From contig JAUNDF010000011.1 of assembly GCA_030526225.1 (NCBI GenBank), positions 3,146 to 32,000 of the forward strand: 28,855 nucleotides of DNA, given 5' to 3'. The stretch's first letter is position 1. Each line of letters opens with the position of its first letter. The notes below the pieces were generated by a model that searched no databases, was not told the origin of the DNA, and saw nothing but the letters and a program-made list of their open reading frames with translations. Positions 3 through 25,353 of the stretch are shown here, in pieces. This stretch comes from Clostridia bacterium (lineage in GTDB: Bacteria > Bacillota > Clostridia > Christensenellales > Aristaeellaceae). The translations under genes and the position numbers were made by a program.

Positions 3-1526
3 GATGTATCCTTCCGGTACATTTCCCAGGGCAAAACGCTGTATCATTCTGCCGGAGACGGCAAGCTGGAATCGGCGGTATACAGCATCTACGGCAAGGA
101 AATGATTCGCTCCATGCGGCGCGTTCACGGCCATCTGAACGGTGTGCTGATGGACGGCTTTGTGGGCATCGGGGAAGGGGCACGGAGCAATCATGCGCAT
201 CAGTCCTTCTTTATCAACGGCCGATACATGAAGAGCAATCTGCTTTCCATATCGGTGGATGCCGCCTGCCGTGAGCGGGTGATGATTGGCAAATATCCGT
301 CCTGTGTCCTGCATCTGACCATGCCTTATGATGTGGTGGATGTCAATGTGCACCCGAATAAACTGTAGGTGCGCTTTCAGGATGAGCAGGGCATTGCCGA
401 GGCAGTGGAAACCATCGTCCGGGAAGCTCTGCAGGATCGGGATGCATTGGAGCGCCCAACCCAGATGGTACTCTGTAAGGAACCGGAAACAAAGCCTGTT
501 GCTGCAACAGTGACCAAACAGCCGGTGATTGCGGCTGCTTCTGTGAAACCGACTGTTCCAACGATTACTCCCACAGCGTCTGTCCCTGTTGCATCAAAGC
601 CGACAGAACAGCAGAATGCTGTTGCTCCTGCTGTAAAAATGACAGTGCAGCCAGCTGTGACAGTGACTGCAGCGAAAACGGCCATTCCTTCAGCTGCTGT
701 ACCTGAAACGGAACCGCTCAAGCCTGCGGCGGTTACGGATAATCCTGCTGCAGCAGCGAAACAGGAGACGGAAACCGAACAGGTTCGTCCCTTTGCACCC
801 ATTGCCTACGCATCATCTGTTGTGAAAAATACTTCCGATGCTGTAGCGCAGTATATGGCAAGCACGGTATTACCGGAAACAAGCGGCTGGGCCAAAAAAG
901 AAATGCCCGCCGTGCAGACGGAGCAGCTTTCTTCTCTGACAGAAGAGCAGAAAAAGCCCCTCCGGCTGATTGGCACAGTATTCAACACCTTCATTCTGGT
1001 GGAATATGAAGAGCATCTGCTGATGATTGACCAGCATGCCGTTCACGAGCGCTTGCTGTTTGACCGCTTCAGCAAGGAAATCGACCAGAATCAGGCCGGG
1101 CAGCAGCTGCTGATTCCCATCATTATGCAGGTCAGCAGAAGAGAGCAGCAGCTGTTGGAGGCCAACAAGGACATGCTGTCCAAGGTTGGGCTGAACATCG
1201 AACCCTTTGGCGAAAACGAGGTATCCGTGCGCAGCATCCCCATGATTCTCGGTCAGCCGCAAACTGAAGCCTTTGTGCGGGAAATGATAGACCAGCTTCA
1301 AAGTGAACGCGGCACCGTCACCATGGAAAAGCGCCGGGCGTCCATTCTTCAGCTTGCCTGCAAAAAGGCTGTCAAGGGCGGCGATCGTTTGACGGAGGAT
1401 GAAATCCGCGACCTTGTGACACGCATGATAGATGAAAAGGTCACACCCACCTGTCCTCACGGCAGACCTCTGGTGATTTCTCTCAGCCACAGTGAAATTG
1501 ACAAGCGCTTCCGGAGAATTCAATGA
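3..1526 (+). CDS. mutL: DNA mismatch repair protein MutL (5' end outside the window), interrupted by an in-frame TAG at 366-368
   Basis: Frame 3 is open from base 3. It reads ...VDVNVHPNKL-TAG-VRFQDEQ, the MutL HPxKxEVRF motif with TAG at the Glu position. A P/A/T/V-rich linker follows, then the C-terminal endonuclease motif DQHAVHERLLFDR and CPHGRP. The gene ends in TGA at 1524-1526. Confidence 0.9.
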
Positions 1527-5032: not shown

Positions 5033-6007
5033 TTGAGTGATAAAAGAAAAATTTTGCTGGATATAGATTCCATGGATGCGTACAGAGCCCTTTTCGGGCT
5101 CAATGACAGAAACATCGCGCTGATTGAACAGGAATGCGGCGTGACTGTTTCACTGCGCGGAAATGAAATCTTTTTTTCTGGTGAAGCCGATGATATGGAC
5201 ATCGCCCAGGCTGTGATTGAAAAGCTTGTCCGCATGATTCAAAAGGGCGAGCAGGTGGACCGCAGCGGCATCCGGTACATGATTGCACTGGCCCGGGAAG
5301 ATAAGCTGGATGAAGCAGACGAAATCATGAAGTCCGTTGTTGCCATTACACACCGCGGAAAGCAGATTCGCTGCAAAACCTTTGGCCAACAGCAATATGT
5401 CAAATGCATCAAGGATCATGATTTGACCTTTGCCGTGGGTCCTGCCGGTACAGGCAAAACATATCTGGCCATGGCTCTGGCTGTTGTGGCACTGAAAAAT
5501 AAATAGGTGGAGCGTATTGTGCTGACCCGTCCCGCGGTGGAAGCCGGTGAAAAGCTGGGTTTCCTGCCCGGTGATCTGACTCAGAAGGTCGACCCGTATC
5601 TTCGCCCGCTGTATGATGCTTTGTTTGATTTTATGGGCGTTGATTCCTATCAGAAGCTGCTGGAGCGGGGGACAGTGGAGGTTGCGCCGCTGGCATACAT
5701 GCGCGGCCGGACACTTTCCGATTCGTTCATCATTCTGGACGAAGCACAGAACACCACCACCGAACAGATGAAAATGTTCCTGACCCGTATCGGCTTCCAT
5801 TCAAAGGTAGTCGTGACCGGTGACGTAACCCAGACCGACCTGCCCTTTGGCAAAAAATCCGGTCTTGTGGAAGCACTGGATGTTTTGAAGGATATTCCCG
5901 AAATCGGCATGGTGCATTTGACCGCCAATGACGTGGTCCGGCATGAACTGGTACAGCGGATTGTCCGCGCTTATGATCAGTATTATCATAAGGAGGGGGA
6001 AAAGTGA
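5033..6007 (+). CDS. phoH: PhoH-family ATPase, interrupted by an in-frame TAG at 5504-5506
   Basis: TTG start 9 nt after GGAGG. Walker A GPAGTGKT, then [32 protein letters not shown] in the same frame. The joined length of 324 aa is typical for PhoH. TGA stop. Confidence 0.9.
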
Positions 6008-8253
6008 AAGCCAAAAACGGAGTCCGCAGAAAGAATAACAGCTTTAAAAAGAAGCTGCGCCAGTGGGCGAATAGCGTAGATGCGAAATGTACGCTGATTG
6101 TTGTCATCTCCATGGTGATTATCGGCGCTCTGTTCTATGCGGTCAGTTCTCCTGAAAAATACGACCTGAAAATCGGTGCAATTTCCCATTACACCATTAC
6201 TGCCACCAAGGATGTTATTGACGAGGTGACCACCGAGGAAAGAAGGCAGGCGGCTGCCAACGCGGTGGAACCCACCTATCATCTGGAAGAGGGCGTAAAT
6301 GCATAGGTCATGCGCAGCCTTGCCGGTGTACTGAAGGAAATCGGCACCGTGCAGCAATACGGTCTGTCTCTTTTTGATGGCACGGAAACGCCCAAGGAGA
6401 AGCAGGCAAGGCAGTTTACTGCCGATGAACTGGCTTATGCGCGAAAGCTGACCACACAAATCAATCTGACGGATTACCAGCTGGCTACGGTCATGCGCAT
6501 GGAAAAAGCGCAGATTGAGGACATGACCTCTGTCTTGACCACCGTGGTTGAAAACTCACTGAACACCACCATCCGCGAGGGACAGGTTAACCAGTCCATT
6601 GATACCATGCTGCAGATTGCAGGCTACAAGATTGATACATCCCTGTTCCAAACGGTGGTTCCCACCATTCTGCGGACTTGCGTAAAGCCCAACATGGTCA
6701 TCGAAACGGAATCCACCGAACTGGCCAAAACAAAAGCACGGGAATCCGTGGAGCCTGTGATTTACCTGCAGGGCCAGAACATCATCAGGCAAGGCGAACG
6801 GGTCAGTGCAAATCAGATGCAGATGCTCCGCGCACTGGGCTTGATTGATGAAAACCAGATTGACTGGTGGCTCTACGTGGGTGCAATGGGCATGATTGTG
6901 GCCGCCATTGCCGTACTGTTGATTCTGCTGAGTGTATTTTCCTCTGAATCACTGCACGATATCCGGAAGATGGCAGTTATCATGATGGTGATTTGCATCA
7001 CCATGCTGCTCTGCTGCATCAGCATCCGGAGCATCAGCGTTTTCCTGGCACCTATTGCCATTTCCGCGCTGCTGATTACTGCGCTCATCGGTGTACCTGA
7101 AGGCATTGCCGGCGGTCTTTGCACTTCCATTCTGGCGGCAGCGTTTGTGCTGGGTGCACCTAATCCCTCTACCTCTGAGGTAACGCAGCTGCTGGTCATC
7201 GGCGTTGTGGATACCATGGCTGCAGCCCTGTTCCTGAAAACAAAGCCCTACCGTATCAAGGTTGTGCTTTGCGGACTCCTGATTTCCGTCATCGGCTTCT
7301 GTGCCATGCTCTGCGTGGGCATTATGACCAGCAGCAATTCCTCCAACGTGAAGGATAATGCGCTGATGTGCATTGAGTCCGGTATCCTCAGCGGCATTGT
7401 TGCGGTTGGTCTGCAGCCGATTCTGGAGGCGGTGTTTAATCTGGCAACGCCTGCCAAACTGATGGAACTGAGCAACCCCAATCACCCCTTGCTGCGCAGA
7501 CTTCTGCTGGAAGCCTCCGGCACCTATCATCATTCTATCATCGTGGCAAATCTGGCTGAGGCAGCGGCTGAGAAGATACATGCCAATCCGCTTCTGGCAA
7601 GAACCGGCGCGTATTTCCACGATGTGGGCAAAATGAAGCGCCCTCTATATTTCAAGGAAAATCAGATTGGCGATAACCCCCACGACAGAACAGACCCCTA
7701 CGTGTCCGCCGCCATTGTGACTTCTCACACGAAGGATGGTCTGAGCCTTGCGCTGAAGCATCGTCTGCCCAGAGAGATTCAGAAGATTATCGTGGAGCAT
7801 CATGGCAATACGCCGGTGATGTACTTCTACCACAAAGCAAGTCAGCTGGCCAACGGCAAGCCGGTGGATGTCAATGACTTCCGCTATGATGGACCTCGTC
7901 CCAGCTCTAAAGAAAGCGCCATTGTCATGCTGGCTGATACGGTGGAGGCGGCTGTGCGTTCCATGCCTGACCCCACGCCTCAGGCCATCGATGAAAAGAT
8001 ACGTAAGCTCGTTCAGGGCAAGGTGGATGACGGTCAGCTGAACGATGCACCGCTGACATTGCGCGACATTGACCGCATCTGTGTTGCCTTTGCTTCGGTG
8101 CTGAACGGTGCCTTCCATGAACGCATTGAATACCCGAATGTGGAGATTCCCAAGCAGCAGACTGTTTTGCCCGAAGAAGTCAGCATCGACCAGCTGACCG
8201 TAAAGCCCGGAAAAGAAAAGCAGGAGAGGACGGAGAAAAAGCATGAAGCTTGA
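6004..8253 (+). CDS. pgpH: 7TM-receptor HD-domain phosphohydrolase (PgpH/YqfF family), interrupted by an in-frame TAG at 6304-6306
   Basis: GTG start overlaps the phoH TGA. An N-terminal TM and extracellular region is followed by a multi-TM block and an HD domain ([14 protein letters not shown]...YFHDVGK...HHG). The two ORFs 6004-6306 and 6310-8253 share a frame. The joined length of 749 aa is typical. Confidence 0.85.
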
Positions 8254-9133
8254 CTGGTACTTTCATGTGGATGTGGACCCGTCTACCATCTCCCTGCTTC
8301 AAACTGCCGCTGATGCAGCGGTGCTGACAGAAGGCATAGCAAGGCCCTGCATGGTTTCGGTAACCATCTGCGATGATGAGGAGATTCAGGAAATCAACCG
8401 GGAATACAGGAATATCGACCGCGCCACCGATGTGCTGTCTTTCCCTTCTGTGAATTACCCCAAGGGCTTGACCGCAGGGCAGTGCGACAAGCAAATCAAA
8501 ATGGAATGGGATGCCGAAGCCGGTGCCTGTTTCCTTGGCGATTTGATTATTTCTCTGCCGCATGTAAAGGCACAGGCTGAGGAATACGGCCATTCCTTCC
8601 AGCGGGAGGCAGCGTATCTGCTGGTGCATGGTATGTGCCATTTGATGGGCTACGACCATATCGAAGAGGATGAAAGAAAGGTGATGCGTGCCATGGAGGA
8701 AAAGATTTTATCATCCATCGGGCAGACAAGAGATGACAATACTGTCACCGATGAACAGCTGCTTGCGCTTGCTCGTGAAGCCATGCAGCGCAGTTATTCG
8801 CCTTACTCGCACTATCCGGTGGGTGCGGCGCTTCTGTGCAATGATGGCCGTGTGTTTCAGGGCTGCAACATCGAAAACGCATCCTTTGGTCTGACAAACT
8901 GTGCCGAACGGACAGCTGTGTTCAAGGCTGTCAGCGAAGGCGCAACAGAATTCACCGCCATCGCCATTGCCTCAAAGGTATCTGCGCCGTGGCCCTGCGG
9001 TGCCTGCCGGCAGGTGCTGAATGAATTCGCCCCTCAAATTCGTGTGCTTGTTACCTGGGATGGCGGTCAGGGTGAAATGCTGCTCACCGATTTGCTGCCC
9101 CATGGTTTTGGTCCCAAAGACCTGCAATCATAA
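8243..9133 (+). CDS. ybeY: Fusion protein: rRNA maturation RNase YbeY (N-terminal) plus cytidine deaminase (C-terminal)
   Basis: YbeY zinc motif HGMCHLMGYDH is at about aa 130-140. Cdd motifs SPYSHYPVGAAL, NCAERTAV and PCGACRQ are in the C-terminal half. It is a single uninterrupted ORF with a TAA stop. Confidence 0.85.
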   Translation: MKLDWYFHVDVDPSTISLLQTAADAAVLTEGIARPCMVSVTICDDEEIQEINREYRNIDRATDVLSFPSVNYPKGLTAGQCDKQIKMEWDAEAGACFLGDLIISLPHVKAQAEEYGHSFQREAAYLLVHGMCHLMGYDHIEEDERKVMRAMEEKILSSIGQTRDDNTVTDEQLLALAREAMQRSYSPYSHYPVGAALLCNDGRVFQGCNIENASFGLTNCAERTAVFKAVSEGATEFTAIAIASKVSAPWPCGACRQVLNEFAPQIRVLVTWDGGQGEMLLTDLLPHGFGPKDLQS

Positions 9134-10094: not shown

Positions 10095-11255
10095 TTAATC
10101 CATGGTTTCCATCAATTCAACCAATAGCATATTTTGCAAATCCATGCCTTTGCGCGTAAGATGCCAACGCCCATCCTAACAGGCCATAAGCTGGCGCTGC
10201 TCCAAACTGAGCAATTGAGGATAGAAGCAGGTATCCTTCAGGGAAATCTGATGCATGGCAAAAAACTGCTCCTGCGATATCCCTTGATTGGTTCGCAGTC
10301 CAAGCATCAGCGTTTCAAACTGAGCATCCTTTCGGCTGATTGCTTCGCGGGGCAGCTGTGAAAAGCTTTTATTATCCACCATGCTGATATATCCGGCGAT
10401 ATCTGCCGGATTGGTCTGACGATAATACAGGTTCTGTTCATCAGAGCAATACAGCATGGAAGTGGACGAAGCGCCGATGCCAAGGTAGGGAATCTGCTGC
10501 CAATAGCCGAGGTTATGACGGCATTCGTAGCCTTCCAAAGCAAAATTGCTGATTTCGTATTGGTGGTAACCATTCTCCGAAAGCAGCTGCAGACAATGGT
10601 CATACATCAGCCGTTCCTCTTCATCCTCAGGCAGACGAAGCTTGCCGCAATCAAGGTCATTTTTCAGTGGCGTATTTTCTTCAGGGATTAAGCCGTAACA
10701 GCTTAAATGCGTGGGGGACAGGGCAATTGCCTTTTTTAATGTTTCGTCCCATTGTTCAAGGGTTTGTGTGGGCAGGCCAAACATCAAATCAAGATTGATG
10801 TTTCTGATTCCATGCCGTCTGATATCTGTTACTGCCTGCTGCACTTCATCAAAGGAATGAATCCTGCCGAGGATGCGTAAAAGCTCCGGCTGGGCGGCCT
10901 GCATACCAAGAGAGATTCGGTTGATGCCATTTTCAGCCGCAGCATCAAGCCAAGCATCCTTTAATGTACCGGGATTTGCCTCACTGGTGATTTCAGCATC
11001 TTCCGCAATGTGAAAGCATCTCTGCATATCCGTCAGCAGTTTTTTCAGCTGTGGCCCTGTCAACACGGAAGGGGTGCCGCCGCCAATGAATACAGAGGTG
11101 ACAGTCTCACCGGAAAAATGGTTGGAGTAATAGGCCATTTCCTTTTCCACAGCCTCAAGGTAACGATCTGCCATGGACAAAAAACCTGCGTAGGAAGGGA
11201 AATCGCAGTAGCGGCATTTCTGTTTACAAAACGGGATATGAATGTATAATTCCAT
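10095..11255 (-). CDS. hemW: Radical SAM heme chaperone HemW (HemN-like), with an in-frame TAG at 10176-10178
   Basis: CKQKCRYCDF radical-SAM motif near the N-terminus. Past the TAG the frame continues as DGRWHLTRKGMDLQNMLLVELMETMD to a TAA at 10095-10097. That tail matches the usual HemN_C end (...dG..v.LT.kG..l.N.v). The joined length is 386 aa. Confidence 0.85.
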
Positions 11256-13717: not shown

Positions 13718-14464
13718 TTACATACCGGACATGAGCAAATCAAGAATGCCATATTGTTCCAGAAAACCGTAAAGGCTCTGATAGGTGGAAACGGGCAGTT
13801 CCTCCAGCACAGGCAGAGCCGTTTTGATAAATGGCTTCATGATGCGGTTGATGAATGTAAACAGCGATCTGTCATTGACTGACAGAATGTTGAACCCTGT
13901 GGCAGAAGCGGGACCGAAAACAGGGCATTGCGCTTCTTTGACGGTCATGGCGCCGTATGCGGTCAGCATGGGCGTTCCATCCTCTGCCCGAATCTGTGAA
14001 ATGGAGAAATTGTAGCCATCGCTCTTGCCGCTGAAGGCCACATCGAGACCAAGCCCGGATTCTTCCAATGCGGTGCCGCCGATGCGGATATGGCCGCTTA
14101 AATCAAATGTTGTGGGCAATGTTTCAGGCAGACCGTCAGCCAGAATATCAACGTAAAGAACAAGCTCGCCGGATTCGTTGGTAACCTTGGCATCGCATTT
14201 GTACAGGGTAGGGGAGTTGATGTAGTCGATGGTCACCGTGTTGCCGTTCAAATCGGGCGGCAAACGCAGCTGCCAGCTTTCGCTCTTGCCTTCTCTGACA
14301 CGGTCAAAGAGCACCATATCACCCATGGTATAGGTATCGCGGTTGCCGTCAAAGGTGACCAGAATGCCATCTTCGGGGACAACCTGTTCAAACCACACAG
14401 CGGTATTGGAGAGGGCATTCAGGATATACTCGTCAATGCCGGTTTGACTGCCCAACGCTTCCAC
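13718..14464 (-). CDS. Hypothetical protein, probably the C-terminal part of a frameshifted secreted protein
   Basis: 248-aa ORF with only a GTG start and no SD. It overlaps the upstream ORF by 46 nt in the -1 frame. TAA stop. Confidence 0.55.
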   Translation of the reverse strand: MEALGSQTGIDEYILNALSNTAVWFEQVVPEDGILVTFDGNRDTYTMGDMVLFDRVREGKSESWQLRLPPDLNGNTVTIDYINSPTLYKCDAKVTNESGELVLYVDILADGLPETLPTTFDLSGHIRIGGTALEESGLGLDVAFSGKSDGYNFSISQIRAEDGTPMLTAYGAMTVKEAQCPVFGPASATGFNILSVNDRSLFTFINRIMKPFIKTALPVLEELPVSTYQSLYGFLEQYGILDLLMSGM

Positions 14465-15075
14465 ATAATTGAGGAAAGGAATTCAGCAAGATCAAGCAGA
14501 TACCATTTGGGGATGACATGTGTGGTCTTGTCGCGTTCCATGACGTAGTACCAGGCGGCTCTTGTCCAGTCGACCGCCTGCCGCAGGTTGTCATTGGGCA
14601 GGGCCAGGGCAATATACTGCAGGGGCAAATCAAGCCGGGAGTAGGTTTTGATGGCAAATTCAACCAGCCCCTTGTAGTCAATCAACAGAGGCATATCTTC
14701 CCCGAACAGATTGCTCTTGATGGTCCAGTGGGAATCCTCGCCGAAAACCTTCAGGGTGACATCGGCCCGGTCATTAAACCTGAACACCAGATTGGTCATA
14801 AAGGAAGGACCGTAGCTGTCCCAAAGGCCTTCCACAGAGACAATATCCAGTGCATCGGCAACGCCGGTCAAAAGCTCCCGATCAGCTTCAGGATACGCCT
14901 GTGCGTTCATCTTAATCTTGCTGTTAAAGAAGAATGCAAATTTCGGGGTATTTTCATCGTAGATATATTCGTAATAATGCTCAGGCATTTGCTCTTCTTC
15001 TGCCAGAGAAAACAGTGGCAGAAGGCATATGACCAGGATAAAAGCGAGAATTCTCTTAAGCTTGTGAGCCATCAT
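14419..15075 (-). CDS. Hypothetical secreted protein, probably the N-terminal part of a frameshifted gene
   Basis: AAAGGAG RBS and signal peptide MMAHKLKRILAFILVICLLPLFSLA. I recognise no family. It ends in TGA inside the overlap with the next ORF. Confidence 0.6.
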   Translation of the reverse strand: MMAHKLKRILAFILVICLLPLFSLAEEEQMPEHYYEYIYDENTPKFAFFFNSKIKMNAQAYPEADRELLTGVADALDIVSVEGLWDSYGPSFMTNLVFRFNDRADVTLKVFGEDSHWTIKSNLFGEDMPLLIDYKGLVEFAIKTYSRLDLPLQYIALALPNDNLRQAVDWTRAAWYYVMERDKTTHVIPKWYLLDLAEFLSSIMWKRWAVKPALTSIS

Positions 15076-15106: not shown

Positions 15107-16000
15107 TTATTCCTCGTCGACAACAGTCCAGTATGCGGGATCGCGGTCAATCAAATCATTGTAAAGGGTATCAACCAGCTGCTGCGTAGCGATATTGGCG
15201 ATGCCATTTACCTTCAAACCGTGTTTCTGCTGAAAAGTCTTTACAGCAGCTACGGTGGATGAACCATACACACCGTTGGCCTTTCCGTCATAGGCGCCAA
15301 TATAAATCAGCTTGTTTTGAAACTGCCGTACTTTTTCGCCCTCGCAGGGATACCGCATCGTGACATCCGCAACATCGTGTACCGTGCCATAGCCAAGGAT
15401 GGACTTGTCATACAGAGAATAAGCTGCCCGCTGAACACTGGTTGGGTTGTTGCCCTCGATGACATGAATCAGAATGTCATCGCCCTTGCGGGTGCAGTAT
15501 TCCACCATGGCCACATGGTCGGTGTCGGTACCGCTTGTCCAGGTGAAAAACATCCAGTCGCCGGGCTGGGGAATGTAATCACCTGTCTTGAGGAACTTGT
15601 CTTCACCTTTCAGCCATTGATATCCCCAGCCATCAATGTTGCCCCAACGGGTGATGTACCGCCCCTCTTTGATAAACCAGTTCTTGCCAACATTCTGGGC
15701 AGAGTACATGGGATATACATGATTGAGCAGCTGTGTGCCGTGCTGCCTGTCAACCTGATCGACACACCAGCACACAAATTCTGCACACCATTGGGCGTAT
15801 GGGTCGCCAGACCATTCGCCGTACTTGGAGTATCCGTGCGGCCCCTCTTTGTACCCGACTTCTTCGTCGGCGATGTCCAGCAGCCACGTGACATATTCCG
15901 GCACTTCCCATTGCGGCGGGATGTATTCCTCCTGCGCAAGGGCCAACGGACAGATAAGAAGCAGAACGACAAGCAGCGGCAATAAGCGGATGATTTTCAA
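15107..16000 (-). CDS. Secreted CHAP-domain peptidoglycan hydrolase with a C-terminal peptidoglycan-binding domain
   Basis: TTG start 9 nt after GGAAAGGAG gives the signal peptide (M)KIIRLLPLLVVLLLICPLALA. CHAP Cys context QWCAEFVCW and His context DHVAMV are present, plus a C-terminal PG_binding_1-like segment (GVYGSSTVAAVKTFQQKHGLKVNG). TAA stop. Confidence 0.8.
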   Translation of the reverse strand: MKIIRLLPLLVVLLLICPLALAQEEYIPPQWEVPEYVTWLLDIADEEVGYKEGPHGYSKYGEWSGDPYAQWCAEFVCWCVDQVDRQHGTQLLNHVYPMYSAQNVGKNWFIKEGRYITRWGNIDGWGYQWLKGEDKFLKTGDYIPQPGDWMFFTWTSGTDTDHVAMVEYCTRKGDDILIHVIEGNNPTSVQRAAYSLYDKSILGYGTVHDVADVTMRYPCEGEKVRQFQNKLIYIGAYDGKANGVYGSSTVAAVKTFQQKHGLKVNGIANIATQQLVDTLYNDLIDRDPAYWTVVDEE

Positions 16001-16032
16001 TGCCGGTTCAGCTCCTTTCCTTGAATCAGTCT

Positions 16033-16719
16033 TTATAAGATGACCGGTACCGTGTGGGTGATGGTCAATGTATCCGGTGTTGTGTGACATACGGCGCCAA
16101 TGATGTTTACGCCGCGGCTGTGGGCCAGACGAAGTGTATCGCCAAAGGCAGGGTGGGTGATATCATTGGGGGAAACGCTTATGATGTTGTCGCGCTGGAG
16201 GACGAAGCAAATGGCGGATTCATAGTCTGCTTCCTTCGCGGCAATCAGTTCGCGGATGTGTTTCACGCCTCGCTCTGTGGGCGCATCGGGGAAGAACGCT
16301 CTGTTTTCATCATCAAACAAGGTCACGCCCTTCACTTCTGCAAAACCGGCTTTGCCATCATGCTGCAGCGAAAAATCAAAGCGGGATTGTCCGAAGGTAA
16401 CCTCGCGCTTGAGCGTGTCGGGCACAAAACCAAGACCGCCCGCTGCAGCCCATTCCTCAAACACACGGTTGGGCGCCTGACTATCCATATTGACCACATA
16501 ACCCCGGGAAGAAACGCATACAAGGTCAAAGCGCGTCTTTCGTTTCGGGTCATTGCTTTCTTCAAGCCATACGGTGCAGCCGGGAATAAGCAGTTCGCGG
16601 CACCGACCGGTGTTTTTCACATGGCATACCACTTCTTCGCCGTTCAGCAAACAATGGGCAATAAAGCGATTGGAGCGGTAAAGAAATGCTGCTTCGTGAA
16701 TATGATGATACAGCTTCAT
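16033..16719 (-). CDS. sfsA: Sugar fermentation stimulation protein SfsA
   Basis: N-terminal FLYRSNRFIAHCLLNGEEVVCHVKNTGRCRELL is typical of SfsA. 228 aa, TAA stop. The start overlaps the VanW gene stop. Confidence 0.9.
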   Translation of the reverse strand: MKLYHHIHEAAFLYRSNRFIAHCLLNGEEVVCHVKNTGRCRELLIPGCTVWLEESNDPKRKTRFDLVCVSSRGYVVNMDSQAPNRVFEEWAAAGGLGFVPDTLKREVTFGQSRFDFSLQHDGKAGFAEVKGVTLFDDENRAFFPDAPTERGVKHIRELIAAKEADYESAICFVLQRDNIISVSPNDITHPAFGDTLRLAHSRGVNIIGAVCHTTPDTLTITHTVPVIL

Positions 16720-17864
16720 CAGTCAGCCCTGTAAATCAGCATCAGCAGTGCACCGTCATCGCTGGTGTGACCTTCCACGCGAATGGGGAAATCGTAATTG
16801 TTGCGGAAGCGCAGGTTCAGCTTGTCATTGCCGACTGCGGCATCCACGCCATGGGGCAGATACTTTGCGCCGTCTGCGCCATGGGGTCTGCGCTGCAGAA
16901 TGCCAATGCCGGGCAGCTGCAGCAAGGCGTTGTACAGCGTGGAGGAAACCTGACAGGTGCCACCGCCATAGCCAGGGACAGAGGTGCCATTAATCAGTAC
17001 CCATGCAGGCTGATAGCCGAGGGCTTTGCGATAGGGGCCCACGTGAGCGTTGAAATCAAGAATTTCACCGGGCTGCATCACGCGGGTCAGCCGGTCGCAT
17101 GCAACGCGGATGTTGATAATTCTGCCCTTGTTGATGTCTGTCTGCACCATGGTGTAGTAGGATGTATACGCGGCGATGGGAGAATCCTTTCTGGCGGGAT
17201 TGTCCGTTTCGGAAACGGGAATCAAGTCCGTCAGCTCATTCATGTTGATATAGCCATAGGTGCGCCAGTAGGGAACGATGGCCCAGCCGTTCTGCAGCTG
17301 CCAGATGCTCAGCATGGTACCGGGATTGAGAACCACCCAGCTGTCAGCGCTGTTGTCCATGGACTTGCGCACATGACACTCTGTTGCAGTGGTGGCAATG
17401 TAAGTGGATTTCTGTGCACCGTAGGGCGGTGTGTTCACGGGATCCACAGGCGTTACATTCAGCAGGCGCTTGCGCTTGACATAGCCGATGGCACCGTCAT
17501 AGCGACAGATGGTCCAGTTGGCACCAACATAGAGCACCTCTACCGTCACATTTTTGCTGCCGCAATATACCAAAGCCTTGCTCTTTACATTGCGCTCTGC
17601 ATACAGGATGGTATTGGAGGTCACCTTGCAGGTGTAAAGAGCGGGGGAAGACATGGTAAAATCAGAAAGGTTCTTTTCGTGATATACCTTGTCGGAGCTT
17701 TCGTCAGCGGCCGCGGCATCCTCGTCACTTTCGCTGACGGCATCCTCTGCCAGCAGCTCCTCCATCTGAGAATCGGAGAGTTCCTCCTCTTCGGTCTCTT
17801 CAGCGCAGGCAACGGAGAAAATCATCATAAAGGCCAAGGCAAAAGCAAGCAAACGTCTCAGCAT
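16719..17864 (-). CDS. VanW-family secreted protein with an acidic low-complexity region and SH3-like repeats
   Basis: Signal peptide, an E/D-rich stretch, then a VanW-like core (GYGGGTCQVSSTLYNALL). AGAGG RBS, TGA stop. Confidence 0.8.
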   Translation of the reverse strand: MLRRLLAFALAFMMIFSVACAEETEEEELSDSQMEELLAEDAVSESDEDAAAADESSDKVYHEKNLSDFTMSSPALYTCKVTSNTILYAERNVKSKALVYCGSKNVTVEVLYVGANWTICRYDGAIGYVKRKRLLNVTPVDPVNTPPYGAQKSTYIATTATECHVRKSMDNSADSWVVLNPGTMLSIWQLQNGWAIVPYWRTYGYINMNELTDLIPVSETDNPARKDSPIAAYTSYYTMVQTDINKGRIINIRVACDRLTRVMQPGEILDFNAHVGPYRKALGYQPAWVLINGTSVPGYGGGTCQVSSTLYNALLQLPGIGILQRRPHGADGAKYLPHGVDAAVGNDKLNLRFRNNYDFPIRVEGHTSDDGALLMLIYRAD

Positions 17865-20521: not shown

Positions 20522-21085
20522 TTACGCGATGATTTCGGGGTGTTCGCCCTCATCCTTTTCCTGTGCTGGATTTTCGGGCATGGGCGGGAGCTCGTCCAAA
20601 TCGGAAATGCCGAAATGGCTCAGGAATTCGTCGGTGGTTCCATACAGAATCGGGCGGCCCAGGGTATCCTTACGGCCAACCTCTGCAATCAGATTCTTGT
20701 TAACCAATGCCTGTACAGAGTAGTCGCACTTTACACCGCGGATTTGCTCGATTTCGGCCTTGGTCACCGGCTGCTTGTAGGCAATCACCGCCAGCGTTTC
20801 CATGATGGTTTGGGACAGGGATTGCTTTTGTACGGGCTGCAGCATATGCACCACATCCTCGGCATACAGGGCGCGGGTGGTCAGCTGCACATGCTTGCCG
20901 AACTGCTTGATGGCAAAGCCACGCTGATTGTAATCATAATCGCTTTTTAAGGCTTCAATCGCCTTGTTCAGCTCGCCTATGGTGCAGCCGATGGCCTTTG
21001 CCAGGTCATCCAGCCGAACGGCTTCTCCGGCAACAAACAGAATCGCCTCAATCTTGCCCTCAATGGTGCCGTTTTCGTTATTCAT
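20522..21085 (-). CDS. scpB: Segregation and condensation protein B
   Basis: IEAILFVAGEAV...LSQTIMETLAVIAYKQPVTKAEIEQIRGV...GRPILYGTT is typical of ScpB. It overlaps the scpA end by 8 nt. TAA stop. Confidence 0.95.
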   Translation of the reverse strand: MNNENGTIEGKIEAILFVAGEAVRLDDLAKAIGCTIGELNKAIEALKSDYDYNQRGFAIKQFGKHVQLTTRALYAEDVVHMLQPVQKQSLSQTIMETLAVIAYKQPVTKAEIEQIRGVKCDYSVQALVNKNLIAEVGRKDTLGRPILYGTTDEFLSHFGISDLDELPPMPENPAQEKDEGEHPEIIA

Positions 21086-21845
21086 AATCGGTCAGATCTC
21101 CTTCAATGGTTGCCTCTGCCTGACCCGGCAGAAGGATGATATCGCCATAGGTTTCAGACTGGTCGATGTGCATTTGTCCCAGCTTCAGCAGCTCCAGCAT
21201 GGCAAGGAAAAGTGTGACAACTTCTTCCTTGGTGGGTGCTTCGCTGAAGGTTTCGGTAAATGACAGGCGCTCGTTTGTTTTCAGCTTCTTCAGCAGATGC
21301 AGCATGCAATCCTCCACCGTGTGTGAATCGCGATGGATATCACGGGGCGCGTAGTGGTTGACCTGCAGTTCTTCGTCTGCATCGGGCTTGCGCATCCAGA
21401 TGCGCAGGAAGGCCTATGTCAGCCCTTCCATGGTCAGGCCCACCAGCTCAACCTCCTGCGGCGGCAGGGGATACTCTGCCGGCAGCTTGGAGAATGCTTC
21501 CTTGGCGGCAGCTTCAAAATTCTGCATGGCAGAGGCCGTTTCGCGAAAACGCTTGTATTCCTCCAAACGGCGAATCAATGCCTGCTCGGGGTCCTCTTCA
21601 TCCTCAATGACGGGCGGTCTGGGCAGCATGGCGCGGCTCTTGATTTCAAGCAGGGTAGCAGCCATGACCAGAAAATCGGTGGCATCCTCCATGTTCAGGT
21701 CAGATGCGTTCTTTACAGATTCAATGTACTGATCTGTGATTTCGCTGATGAAAATATCCTTGATGTCGATCTTCGCCTTGCCAATCAGGTGCAGAAGCAA
21801 ATCAAGGGGGCCGTCAAAGTCTTTTAACTGGAAGGTCATCGGCAT
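21078..21845 (-). CDS. scpA: Segregation and condensation protein A, interrupted by an in-frame TAG at 21414-21416
   Basis: N-terminal FDGPLDLLLHLIGKAKIDIKDI is typical of ScpA. ORFs 21414-21845 and 21078-21395 share a frame. The junction reads LTMEGLT-TAG-AFLRIWMRKPD. The joined length of 255 aa is typical. TAA stop. Confidence 0.9.
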
Positions 21846-23602: not shown

Positions 23603-25001
23603 ATTGCAATGCCTGATAGAGGATATCAAACAGCTGGGGCAGTGCGTTTTCATCAACAGATGAATAGTCTATCACAAATTGACCGTTCGGCGCTTCAGCG
23701 GGATTTGCATAATAGGATGAAAGGGGGATGATTTTGATTTTTGCCTTTTCTGCACGCTGTACAACCTAAGCGTCGGTCAGGCGGGTGTTGAGCCGGAGAA
23801 TAAAATGGAAACCGGCATCCTTCTCTTCAATAGATGAAATGCTTTTTAGGGAAGAGGCGTTGAACAGATTGAGGATTCGTTCCCGTCTGGAACGGTATTG
23901 CTTTCTGACACGATGAATATGCCGGTCAAAATGTCCGCGCTTGATAAACATGGCCAGCGTGTATTGCTCCAGATTGGAAACGCTGCAGCTGTAGAAAGAC
24001 AGCTTCTTTCTGTAAGCCTCCATGAGTGATTCGGGAAGCACCATATAGCTGATGCGGATGGTGGAGGACAGCGTTTTGGAAAAGGTGTTCATATAAATAA
24101 CGCGATTGCTCTGGTCAATGCTTTTCAACGCTGGGATGGGGCGGCCGGTCAATCGCAGCTCGCTGTCGTAATCATCCTCGATGATGAACCGGTTGTTTGC
24201 CTGACTGGCCCACTGAAGAAGGGCAAGTCTGCGGCTGTACGGTGTAACAAGCCCGGTGGGGAAGTGATGGGCAGGGGAAATGTGGACAACAGCCGCTTCA
24301 GAGCTGGCTAATTGACTGATGCTGATGCCCTGCTCATCCAGATTGATTGGAATACACTTTGCCCGGTGACTTTCATAGACCTTCCTGATTTTTGAATAAC
24401 CAGGGTTTTCCACGGCGTACAGCAAGTCATTGCCCAAAAGCTGTACCAGAATGCTGTACAGATAATCTGTACCGGCACCGACGATAATCTGCTCGGGAGA
24501 AGCGTGGATGCCGCGGTATGATTCAAGGTGCTCGGCAATGGCCTGCCGAAGTTCAAAGATGCCTTGTCCGGGTGAAACGGAAAGAAGCTCCTTCTGGCAG
24601 GTGGACAGAACTTCCCGCGTAAGCTTTGACCACAGCGAAAAGGGAAAAACGCTGGCACTGATTTTGTTGCTGGTCAAGTCTGCAAGATAAGTTGTTTCAA
24701 CAGTGGCAGTCTCAGAGACAGCGGCAGTGGAGGGAATTCCGGCTGTGCCATGTTCGCAGGAAATGTCGGCAACAAAATAGCCTTTCTTCTCAATGGCATA
24801 TATATATCCTTCCGACAGCAGCTGGGCATACGCGTTGGCGATTGTAATCACGCTGACACTGTTAGCCTCTGCCATGGCACGCTTGGAGGGCAGCTTTTCC
24901 GAGGCCTTCAGCTTGCCGGAAAGAATATCCTGCCTGATGCAAAGATAGATGTATTCAAACAGCGGCTTTGAACCGCGCAGCTCCATGTTGTAGGTAAGCA
25001 T
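23601..25001 (-). CDS. MocR/PdxR-family regulator (GntR HTH fused to an aminotransferase-like domain), with an in-frame TAG at 23766-23768
   Basis: ATG at 25001 lies 8 nt after GAGG. The HTH region reads LPSKRAMAEANSVSVITIANAY, and the aminotransferase fold carries FSKTL. After the TAG the frame continues as VVQRAEKAKIKIIPLSSYYANPAEAPNGQFVIDYSSVDENALPQLFDILYQALQ to a TAA at 23601. That is a typical C-terminus for this family. The joined length is 466 aa. Confidence 0.85.
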
Positions 25002-25073: not shown

Positions 25074-25077
25074 TTCG

Positions 25078-25151
25078 TGGCTCCGATTGGACTCGAACCA
25101 ATGACACTCCGGGTATGAACCGAATGCTCTAGCCAACTGAGCTACGGAGCC
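25078..25151 (-). tRNA. tRNA-Met (CAT), elongator type, CCA not encoded
   Basis: The reverse complement GGCTCCGTAGCTCAGTTGGCTAGAGCATTCGGTTCATACCCGGAGTGTCATTGGTTCGAGTCCAATCGGAGCCA folds as a cloverleaf with anticodon loop TTCATAC. A lysidine-modified tRNA-Ile2 cannot be fully excluded from sequence alone. Confidence 0.8.
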
Positions 25152-25161
25152 ATATTTGATT

Positions 25162-25193
25162 AAAAAAGAAAGAACTCTTTGAAAAGAGTTCTT
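25162..25193 (-). terminator. Terminator-like hairpin between the two tRNA-Met copies
   Basis: On the minus strand: AAGAACTCTT, 4-nt loop, AAGAGTTCTT, then TCTTTTTT. Confidence 0.6.
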
Positions 25194-25197
25194 AAAG

Positions 25198-25271
25198 TGG
25201 CTCCGATTGGACTCGAACCAATGACACTCCGGGTATGAACCGAATGCTCTAGCCAACTGAGCTACGGAGCC
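25198..25271 (-). tRNA. tRNA-Met (CAT), second identical copy
   Basis: The 74 nt are identical to 25078-25151. Confidence 0.8.
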
Positions 25272-25277
25272 ACAAAA

Positions 25278-25353
<76 letters not shown>

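Follow-up and report, generated by a model that had tools for sequence, protein, structure and literature searches.

Does an in-frame TAG in a bacterial mismatch repair (MMR) gene mark the loss of that gene, or has the codon acquired an amino acid meaning? This question is raised by mutL, the first gene in a stretch of 28,855 nucleotides from a MAG of an uncultured, gut-type Clostridia lineage, referred to here as the window. The mutL coding sequence occupies positions 3-1526 of the forward strand; its 5' end is cut by the window edge, it terminates in TGA, and both its DNA_mis_repair and its MutL_C domains are intact. In the mutL frame (frame 3), positions 366-368 on the same strand read TAG. 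The translation runs VDVNVHPNKL up to this codon and VRFQDEQ beyond it, such that the TAG, followed directly by a GTG codon, stands at the conserved Glu of the HPxKxEVRF motif. This TAG is very likely not the sign of a broken gene. On the strength of comparative sequence evidence, we assign a probability of roughly 0.8 to the reading that UAG is a sense codon for glutamate in the source organism, in which case the mutL TAG would be synonymous with GAG and a full-length MutL would be made.

The case begins with the MutL column itself. Glu occupies this position in 119 of the 119 nearest homologues (54-67% identity), all of which carry the identical string VDVNVHPNKLEVRF, and it is likewise found in solved MutL structures, as exemplified by HPSKLEVRL (9n2k) and the HPAKHEVRF of E. 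coli. Alignment to homologues therefore bears out the original prediction, made from the DNA letters alone, that the TAG interrupts mutL at a near-invariant Glu. As that prediction had also stated, the gene is open downstream of the TAG, with 385 codons extending from position 369 to the TGA at 1524-1526. On the protein fragment encoded in the window, the Pfam DNA_mis_repair match extends over residues 27-143 and so spans the TAG at residue 122, and the motifs ACKKAVK, CPHGRP, and DKRFRR are present in the C-terminal part of the protein, CPHGRP having been correctly identified at the outset. The endonuclease motif had been given as DQHAxxExxxxE; the motif is present, but its last residue is Asp and not Glu (DQHAVHERLLFD), as is the case in 119 of 119 homologues. 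Constraint downstream of the window's own TAGs was gauged indirectly, via an identity ratio, and for MutL the ratio of -ln(identity) values is 1.41 after the TAG vs 1.47 before it, denoting no excess divergence of the query downstream. The comparison of constraint before and after the TAG, which had been proposed as a check, thus reveals no relaxation in mutL, and together with the intact C-terminal motifs it upholds the earlier view that the gene is no old pseudogene.

Chance does not account for the mutL TAG, as five further genes of the window have a TAG of the same kind. The gene set consisted of 27 curated window genes with Pfam support, in which TAG was read through, and six of these carry one in-frame TAG each. 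Besides mutL, these include two genes on the forward strand, phoH (approximately 5072-6007, stop TGA), whose TAG at 5504-5506 corresponds to Glu in an identical context in the closest loci (VALKNK-E-VERIVL), and a gene for a 7TM-HD membrane protein (6004-8253, stop TGA) with its TAG at 6304-6306. The other three lie on the reverse strand and all end in TAA: hemW (10095-11255) with a TAG at 10176-10178, scpA (21078-21845) with a TAG at 21414-21416, and a gene for a GntR/aminotransferase (MocR-type) regulator (23601 to approximately 25001) with a TAG at 23766-23768. Each of the six falls within a Pfam domain match, in-frame in a conserved gene, as in known stop-to-sense reassignments. In the public record of the source MAG (locus-tag prefix Q4C54; contig of 36,756 bp), which follows the standard code, HemW is accordingly a protein of 359 aa that ends at the TAG, and the C-terminal 385 aa of MutL are represented by a 'hypothetical protein', MDO4483390.1. 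Probably about one gene in five in the source genome is mis-annotated through use of the standard code.

The same truncated and split genes could be taken at face value. The TAGs would then be true nonsense mutations, mutL would be dead, the strain would be an MMR-deficient mutator, and the other TAG-bearing genes would be recent pseudogenes. That TAG-creating changes make up about half of the possible nonsense substitutions in these genes lends this reading some further plausibility, and the original prediction had placed it first among the competing explanations. The lesions themselves do not have the character of nonsense mutations in a mutator, however. All six are TAG, an outcome with a probability of 0.014-0.037 under random single-base nonsense mutation, and the 27 window genes contain no in-frame TAA, no in-frame TGA, and no frameshift. 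Glu codons account for 7.5-15% of TAG-creating substitutions, yet at least four of the sites are Glu sites. The GAG to TAG change is a G-to-T transversion and does not fit the spectrum left by loss of MMR, whose signature consists of transitions and indels. Divergence is not raised after the TAGs, nor is constraint relaxed downstream of them, and the reading would require the simultaneous loss of scpA, phoH, and hemW. With one TAG in each of six among 27 genes and the sites specific for Glu, we consider nonsense mutation in a mutator very unlikely, and its ranking as the main competitor is not sustained.

In-frame TAGs are also found beyond the window. Three metagenome contigs from a related lineage, retrieved via the 7TM-HD protein (L083, L084, and L085), carry in-frame TAGs at sites other than those of the window; ten of these in L083 and three in L085 lie within aligned domains of conserved genes. 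The phoH TAG of L083 occupies a column that is Glu in 83 of 83 other loci. The recG gene of L083 has four internal TAGs, three of which correspond to Glu in the RecG structures of both T. maritima and E. coli (two of these three are Glu in the Mfd structure as well) and the fourth with P or D. One of the L083 7TM-HD TAGs falls in a column composed of E 19 and D 6, the other in a variable column. In the lineage formed by these three contigs, a TAG in an rluA-type gene aligns with a Glu of RluA, and in a Ser/Thr kinase of L085 a TAG is positioned at the alphaC-helix Glu. When in-frame TAGs with a coding signal on both sides were counted, four were found in the 29 kb window, seven in the 21 kb of L083, and 12 in the 620 kb of the other loci, where those inspected turned out to be two neighbouring genes in the same frame.

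The second lineage also permits a direct measure of selection. L083 and L084 derive from different co-assemblies and are 94.8% identical at the DNA level, and both 7TM-HD TAGs are common to the two. After these TAGs, 79 synonymous and 3 non-synonymous differences separate the contigs (dN/dS 0.010), and after the phoH TAG there are 7 synonymous and no non-synonymous differences. The sequence 3' of the in-frame TAGs is therefore translated in the L083/L084 lineage and is held under purifying selection, as stop-to-sense reassignment entails. The persistence of this pattern over 5% DNA divergence stands as further evidence against nonsense mutation.

The L083 contig also encodes, on its forward strand at 15112-17145 and 3' of an ApbE flavin transferase gene, a predicted secreted protein of 677 aa with three near-identical repeats of about 100 aa (…ELKASAPGYDNDPVKV…TFTSQAVV…).

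A skeptic might propose that the TAGs are artefacts, arising through assembly or sequencing error or through a modified guanine read as T. The window derives from one MAG, and the second assembly available for comparison rests on the same sequencing run; in that assembly, two short Logan contigs of run SRR24915835 (L086, which covers the hemW TAG, and L087, which covers the scpA TAG) match the window at 100% identity over 2.1 and 2.6 kb. Two assemblers thus agree to the letter, TAGs included. Moreover, TAGs appear at different sites on three contigs from other metagenome co-assemblies, those common to L083 and L084 have been kept despite 104 substitutions between the contigs, and the changes occur only within the reading frame and at Glu codons. 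An artefactual origin accordingly seems exceedingly improbable.

Three more specific explanations were tried and rejected. Dcm-type deamination hotspots, in which CCAGG becomes CTAGG, do not apply because C precedes none of the six window TAGs. Termination followed by re-initiation right after the TAG was dismissed on the grounds that a GTG codon lies immediately 3' in mutL and phoH only. Finally, the 120-nt segments 3' of the six TAGs gave folding z-scores of -0.1 to -2.0 and no common fold, contrary to what a cis-acting RNA read-through element of the SECIS or PYLIS type would require.

If UAG is a sense codon, the identity of the amino acid can be approached through the residues that homologues carry at the TAG columns. 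ScpA is strongly biased toward Glu (E 106, A 6, D 5, and Q 3 among 120 homologues), and in the MocR column E is the top residue (42 of 130). The 7TM-HD column at 6304 is either E or Q among the closest relatives, and the HemW column is variable (Q 33, E 27, A 16, T 15, and others). Summed over the six window columns, Glu scores +4.93 and Gln +0.90 in log10 odds relative to background, and every other residue is negative. The evidence thus converges on a single amino acid, as expected of a stop-to-sense reassignment, with Glu favoured by the odds and invariant in columns of MutL, PhoH, RecG, and the kinase.

Glutamine nonetheless comes second in this ranking; it leads the HemW column and is frequent in that of 7TM-HD. 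Translation of UAG as Gln, for example via a tRNA-Gln(CUA), also has a known precedent associated with prokaryotes, in the amber suppressors and in the phage code designated code 15. Yet over the six columns Gln is about 10^4 times less likely than Glu (approximately 4 log10 units), and TAGs reside at invariant and functionally critical Glu positions, including those of MutL (119/119) and PhoH (83/83), the three RecG sites, and the alphaC helix of the kinase. When the two recoded lineages are compared reciprocally, a TAG in one corresponds to GAG or GAA in the other in five of five cases and never to CAG. All annotated genes of the window, furthermore, are chromosomal housekeeping genes, in contrast to a phage-type code 15. 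Glutamine is for these reasons an improbable assignment.

A second alternative reading of the codon is that UAG encodes pyrrolysine (Pyl) or some other residue genome-wide, a bacterial analogue of the archaeal 'Code 34'. Genome-wide use of TAG for Pyl has been reported in archaea (bioRxiv 10.1101/2024.09.30.615893). The TAGs described here, by contrast, cluster on conserved Glu columns, among them catalytic or structural Glu positions at which a bulky lysine derivative is not expected to be tolerated, and Lys, Tyr, Trp, Leu, and Ser all have negative odds. Pfam annotation of the window revealed neither pyl genes nor methylamine methyltransferase genes. Within the window, then, TAGs are tied to Glu columns in the absence of genes for Pyl synthesis or use, and a Pyl code is very hard to credit.

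Reading UAG as glutamate also brings to light a regularity in the base that follows the codon. The next base is G after all six window TAGs (P 0.0016-0.0066), after the ten clear internal TAGs of L083 it is G (4) or A (6), and after the three of L085 it is A, G, and A. A purine thus follows 19 of 19 clear sense TAGs in the window, L083, and L085 (P ~2e-4, given a purine frequency of 0.64 after Glu codons). In E. coli, according to classical work on context effects, suppression of an amber codon gains over termination when the base 3' of it is a purine. The pattern suggests that placement of UAG is still limited by the efficiency of decoding or by leftover competition with termination. Two L083 TAGs are followed by a pyrimidine. 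The first, at 8752 in recG, precedes T and lies 12 codons before the recG TGA, near the end of the T. maritima RecG structure; it could be a true stop. The second, at 6781, precedes C and directly follows an ATGATG at the possible start of recG. Possibly these two are exceptions to the purine rule, or else they are evidence that TAG has two meanings.

It is tempting to extend the latter idea into a tentative model, which we regard as doubtful. UAG might carry a dual meaning in a family of uncultured Clostridia, being translated as Glu by a tRNA-Glu(CUA) before a purine and serving as a stop, with RF1 retained, before a pyrimidine. Since the window lineage and L083/L085 are not sisters, such a system would have had to arise, or be transferred, on two occasions. 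If this model were true, these bacteria would represent a living 'ambiguous intermediate' of codon reassignment.

Stop codon usage and phylogeny place these observations in context. The 27 window genes end in TAA (20) or TGA (7) and never in TAG, which on its own is weak evidence of recoding because standard-code relatives also seldom end genes in TAG: the TAG share of their stops is 8% and 13%, as determined by orthologue-based and coding-potential-based approaches, and 3 of 69 (about 4%) in the closest clade. The scarcity of TAG stops in the closest standard-code relatives could have been a precondition for reassignment, as codon capture would depend on low usage of this kind. GC content is 51.5% in the window, where 74% of stops are TAA, and 55-64% in its relatives (L001-L005 and L082), whose stops are mostly TGA. 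Among the matches listed, the nearest genomes are those of Candidatus Egerieenecus, the nearest named genus, and allied MAGs, with a best PhoH identity of 78%. Proteins of the source MAG are singletons upon clustering at 90% identity, and a scan of metagenomes found no contig of the window's own species.

A bootstrapped NJ tree built from 1407 columns joins L083 and L085 with 100% support and places the window outside a clade composed of Egerieenecus, L005, and L083/L085, with 87% support. Egerieenecus uses the standard code, at least one of its genes ending in a TAG that is followed by C. The two recoded lineages are therefore not sisters in this tree, and the distribution implies two origins, a reversal, or an error in the tree.

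How might UAG be decoded as glutamate? The decoder would be a tRNA with the anticodon CUA, most simply a copy of tRNA-Glu(CUC) that has undergone a C36 to A change, and GluRS would charge it. In Firmicutes without GlnRS, the GluRS is non-discriminating and already accommodates differences at position 36. We further infer that RF1 has been lost or weakened, leaving RF2 alone to terminate translation at UAA and UGA. No tRNA with a CUA anticodon is present in the 28,855-nt window or in the 87 loci compared, and prfA is not among the window genes.

The Rfam scan of the window identified three tRNAs only. Their genes are arranged in tandem on the reverse strand at 25077-25353, directly upstream of the MocR-type gene and on the same strand, and all three have a CAT anticodon. 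One is initiator-like (CGCGGGG...CAACCA), and the remaining pair are identical to each other, with a terminator-like hairpin after each.

Two other features of the window deserve mention. At 8243-9133 on the forward strand, YbeY endoribonuclease and cytidine deaminase domains share a single ORF of 296 aa. Alignments to several relatives run across a stop codon close to where the two domains join, and the fusion may thus be specific to the window's clade. On the reverse strand at 13718-15075, two adjoining ORFs (248 and 218 aa) share 46 bases and lack Pfam matches, and the second of the pair begins with a segment resembling a signal peptide.

Translation of UAG as glutamate in a free-living bacterium, if true, would be the first known bacterial case of an amber codon reassigned to a standard amino acid, such reassignments having been encountered so far only in phages, organelles, and eukaryotes, and it would thereby add a new genetic code to those known in bacteria. 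The purine rule, coupled with the existence of standard-code relatives that have few TAG stops, would then offer a direct test of codon-capture vs ambiguous-intermediate models of reassignment. On a practical level, annotation of these genomes by the standard code probably cuts short or divides about one gene in five, as has already happened in the public record, and so skews estimates of completeness, counts of pseudogenes, and functional calls, an example being the false inference that the source organism has no mismatch repair. For experimental purposes, the organism would supply a natural counterpart to synthetic E. coli strains free of RF1, together with a natural tRNA(CUA)/GluRS pair for study.

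Comparisons with known systems begin with bacterial codes 4 and 25. In code 4, UGA encodes Trp in the Mycoplasmatales and several endosymbionts, and in code 25 it encodes Gly in the Gracilibacteria/Absconditabacteria. The system proposed here shares with these codes a genome-wide conversion of a stop to a sense codon, the occurrence of that codon in-frame in housekeeping genes, and the fragmentation of genes by standard annotation, as well as an expected mechanism in which an altered tRNA anticodon is combined with loss of the codon-specific release factor. It differs in that codes 4 and 25 concern UGA and RF2, whereas here the codon is UAG, the amino acid Glu, and the release factor at stake RF1. 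Unlike the reduced endosymbionts, moreover, the source organism has a moderate GC content (51.5%) and no sign of a reduced endosymbiont genome. Stop codon reassignments described in bacteria all involve UGA (PMC8629427; PMC13462651, August 2026), and TAG in bacteria otherwise acts as a stop, save for rare Pyl sites (bioRxiv 10.1101/2024.09.30.615893). A literature search found no report of a bacterial sense reassignment of UAG or of UAG encoding Glu.

The gut phages that use code 15 (UAG=Gln; crAss-like phages, Lak phages, and others) recode the same codon in a similar habitat, by means of a suppressor tRNA(CUA) whose equivalent would have to exist in the organism described here. The hosts of code 15 phages, however, are standard-code bacteria, while the TAGs of the present lineages are found in chromosomal mutL, scpA, phoH, and recG and most probably specify Glu. 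A match in the amino acid is provided by eukaryotes, as UAG or UAR encodes Glu in peritrich ciliates, in Blastocrithidia nonstop (UAR=Glu), and in some phyllopharyngean ciliates. In some of these eukaryotes, a stop codon carries two meanings depending on its context (PMC12153298, PMC11687900, PMC4967479). These codes rely on cognate tRNA-Glu species, as would the system proposed here; they are nuclear codes, though, and depend on changes in eRF1, and no bacterial example is known.

Among prokaryotes, the archaeal 'Genetic Code 34' is comparable in that TAG is used as a sense codon throughout the genome, the trait is sporadic among relatives, and low TAG-stop usage appears as a precondition (bioRxiv 10.1101/2024.09.30.615893). 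Code 34, however, demands the Pyl machinery and the 22nd amino acid, and the TAG columns described here are specific for Glu. An analogue of the proposed end state has been built in the laboratory. In E. coli C321.deltaA, all TAG stops were reportedly converted to TAA, RF1 was deleted, and TAG was reassigned. Termination at TAA and TGA, with TAG given over to an amino acid through a CUA tRNA, is likewise the end state proposed for the source organism of the window. Unlike its synthetic counterpart, the latter would have reached that state by natural means and with TAG spread to about one gene in five.
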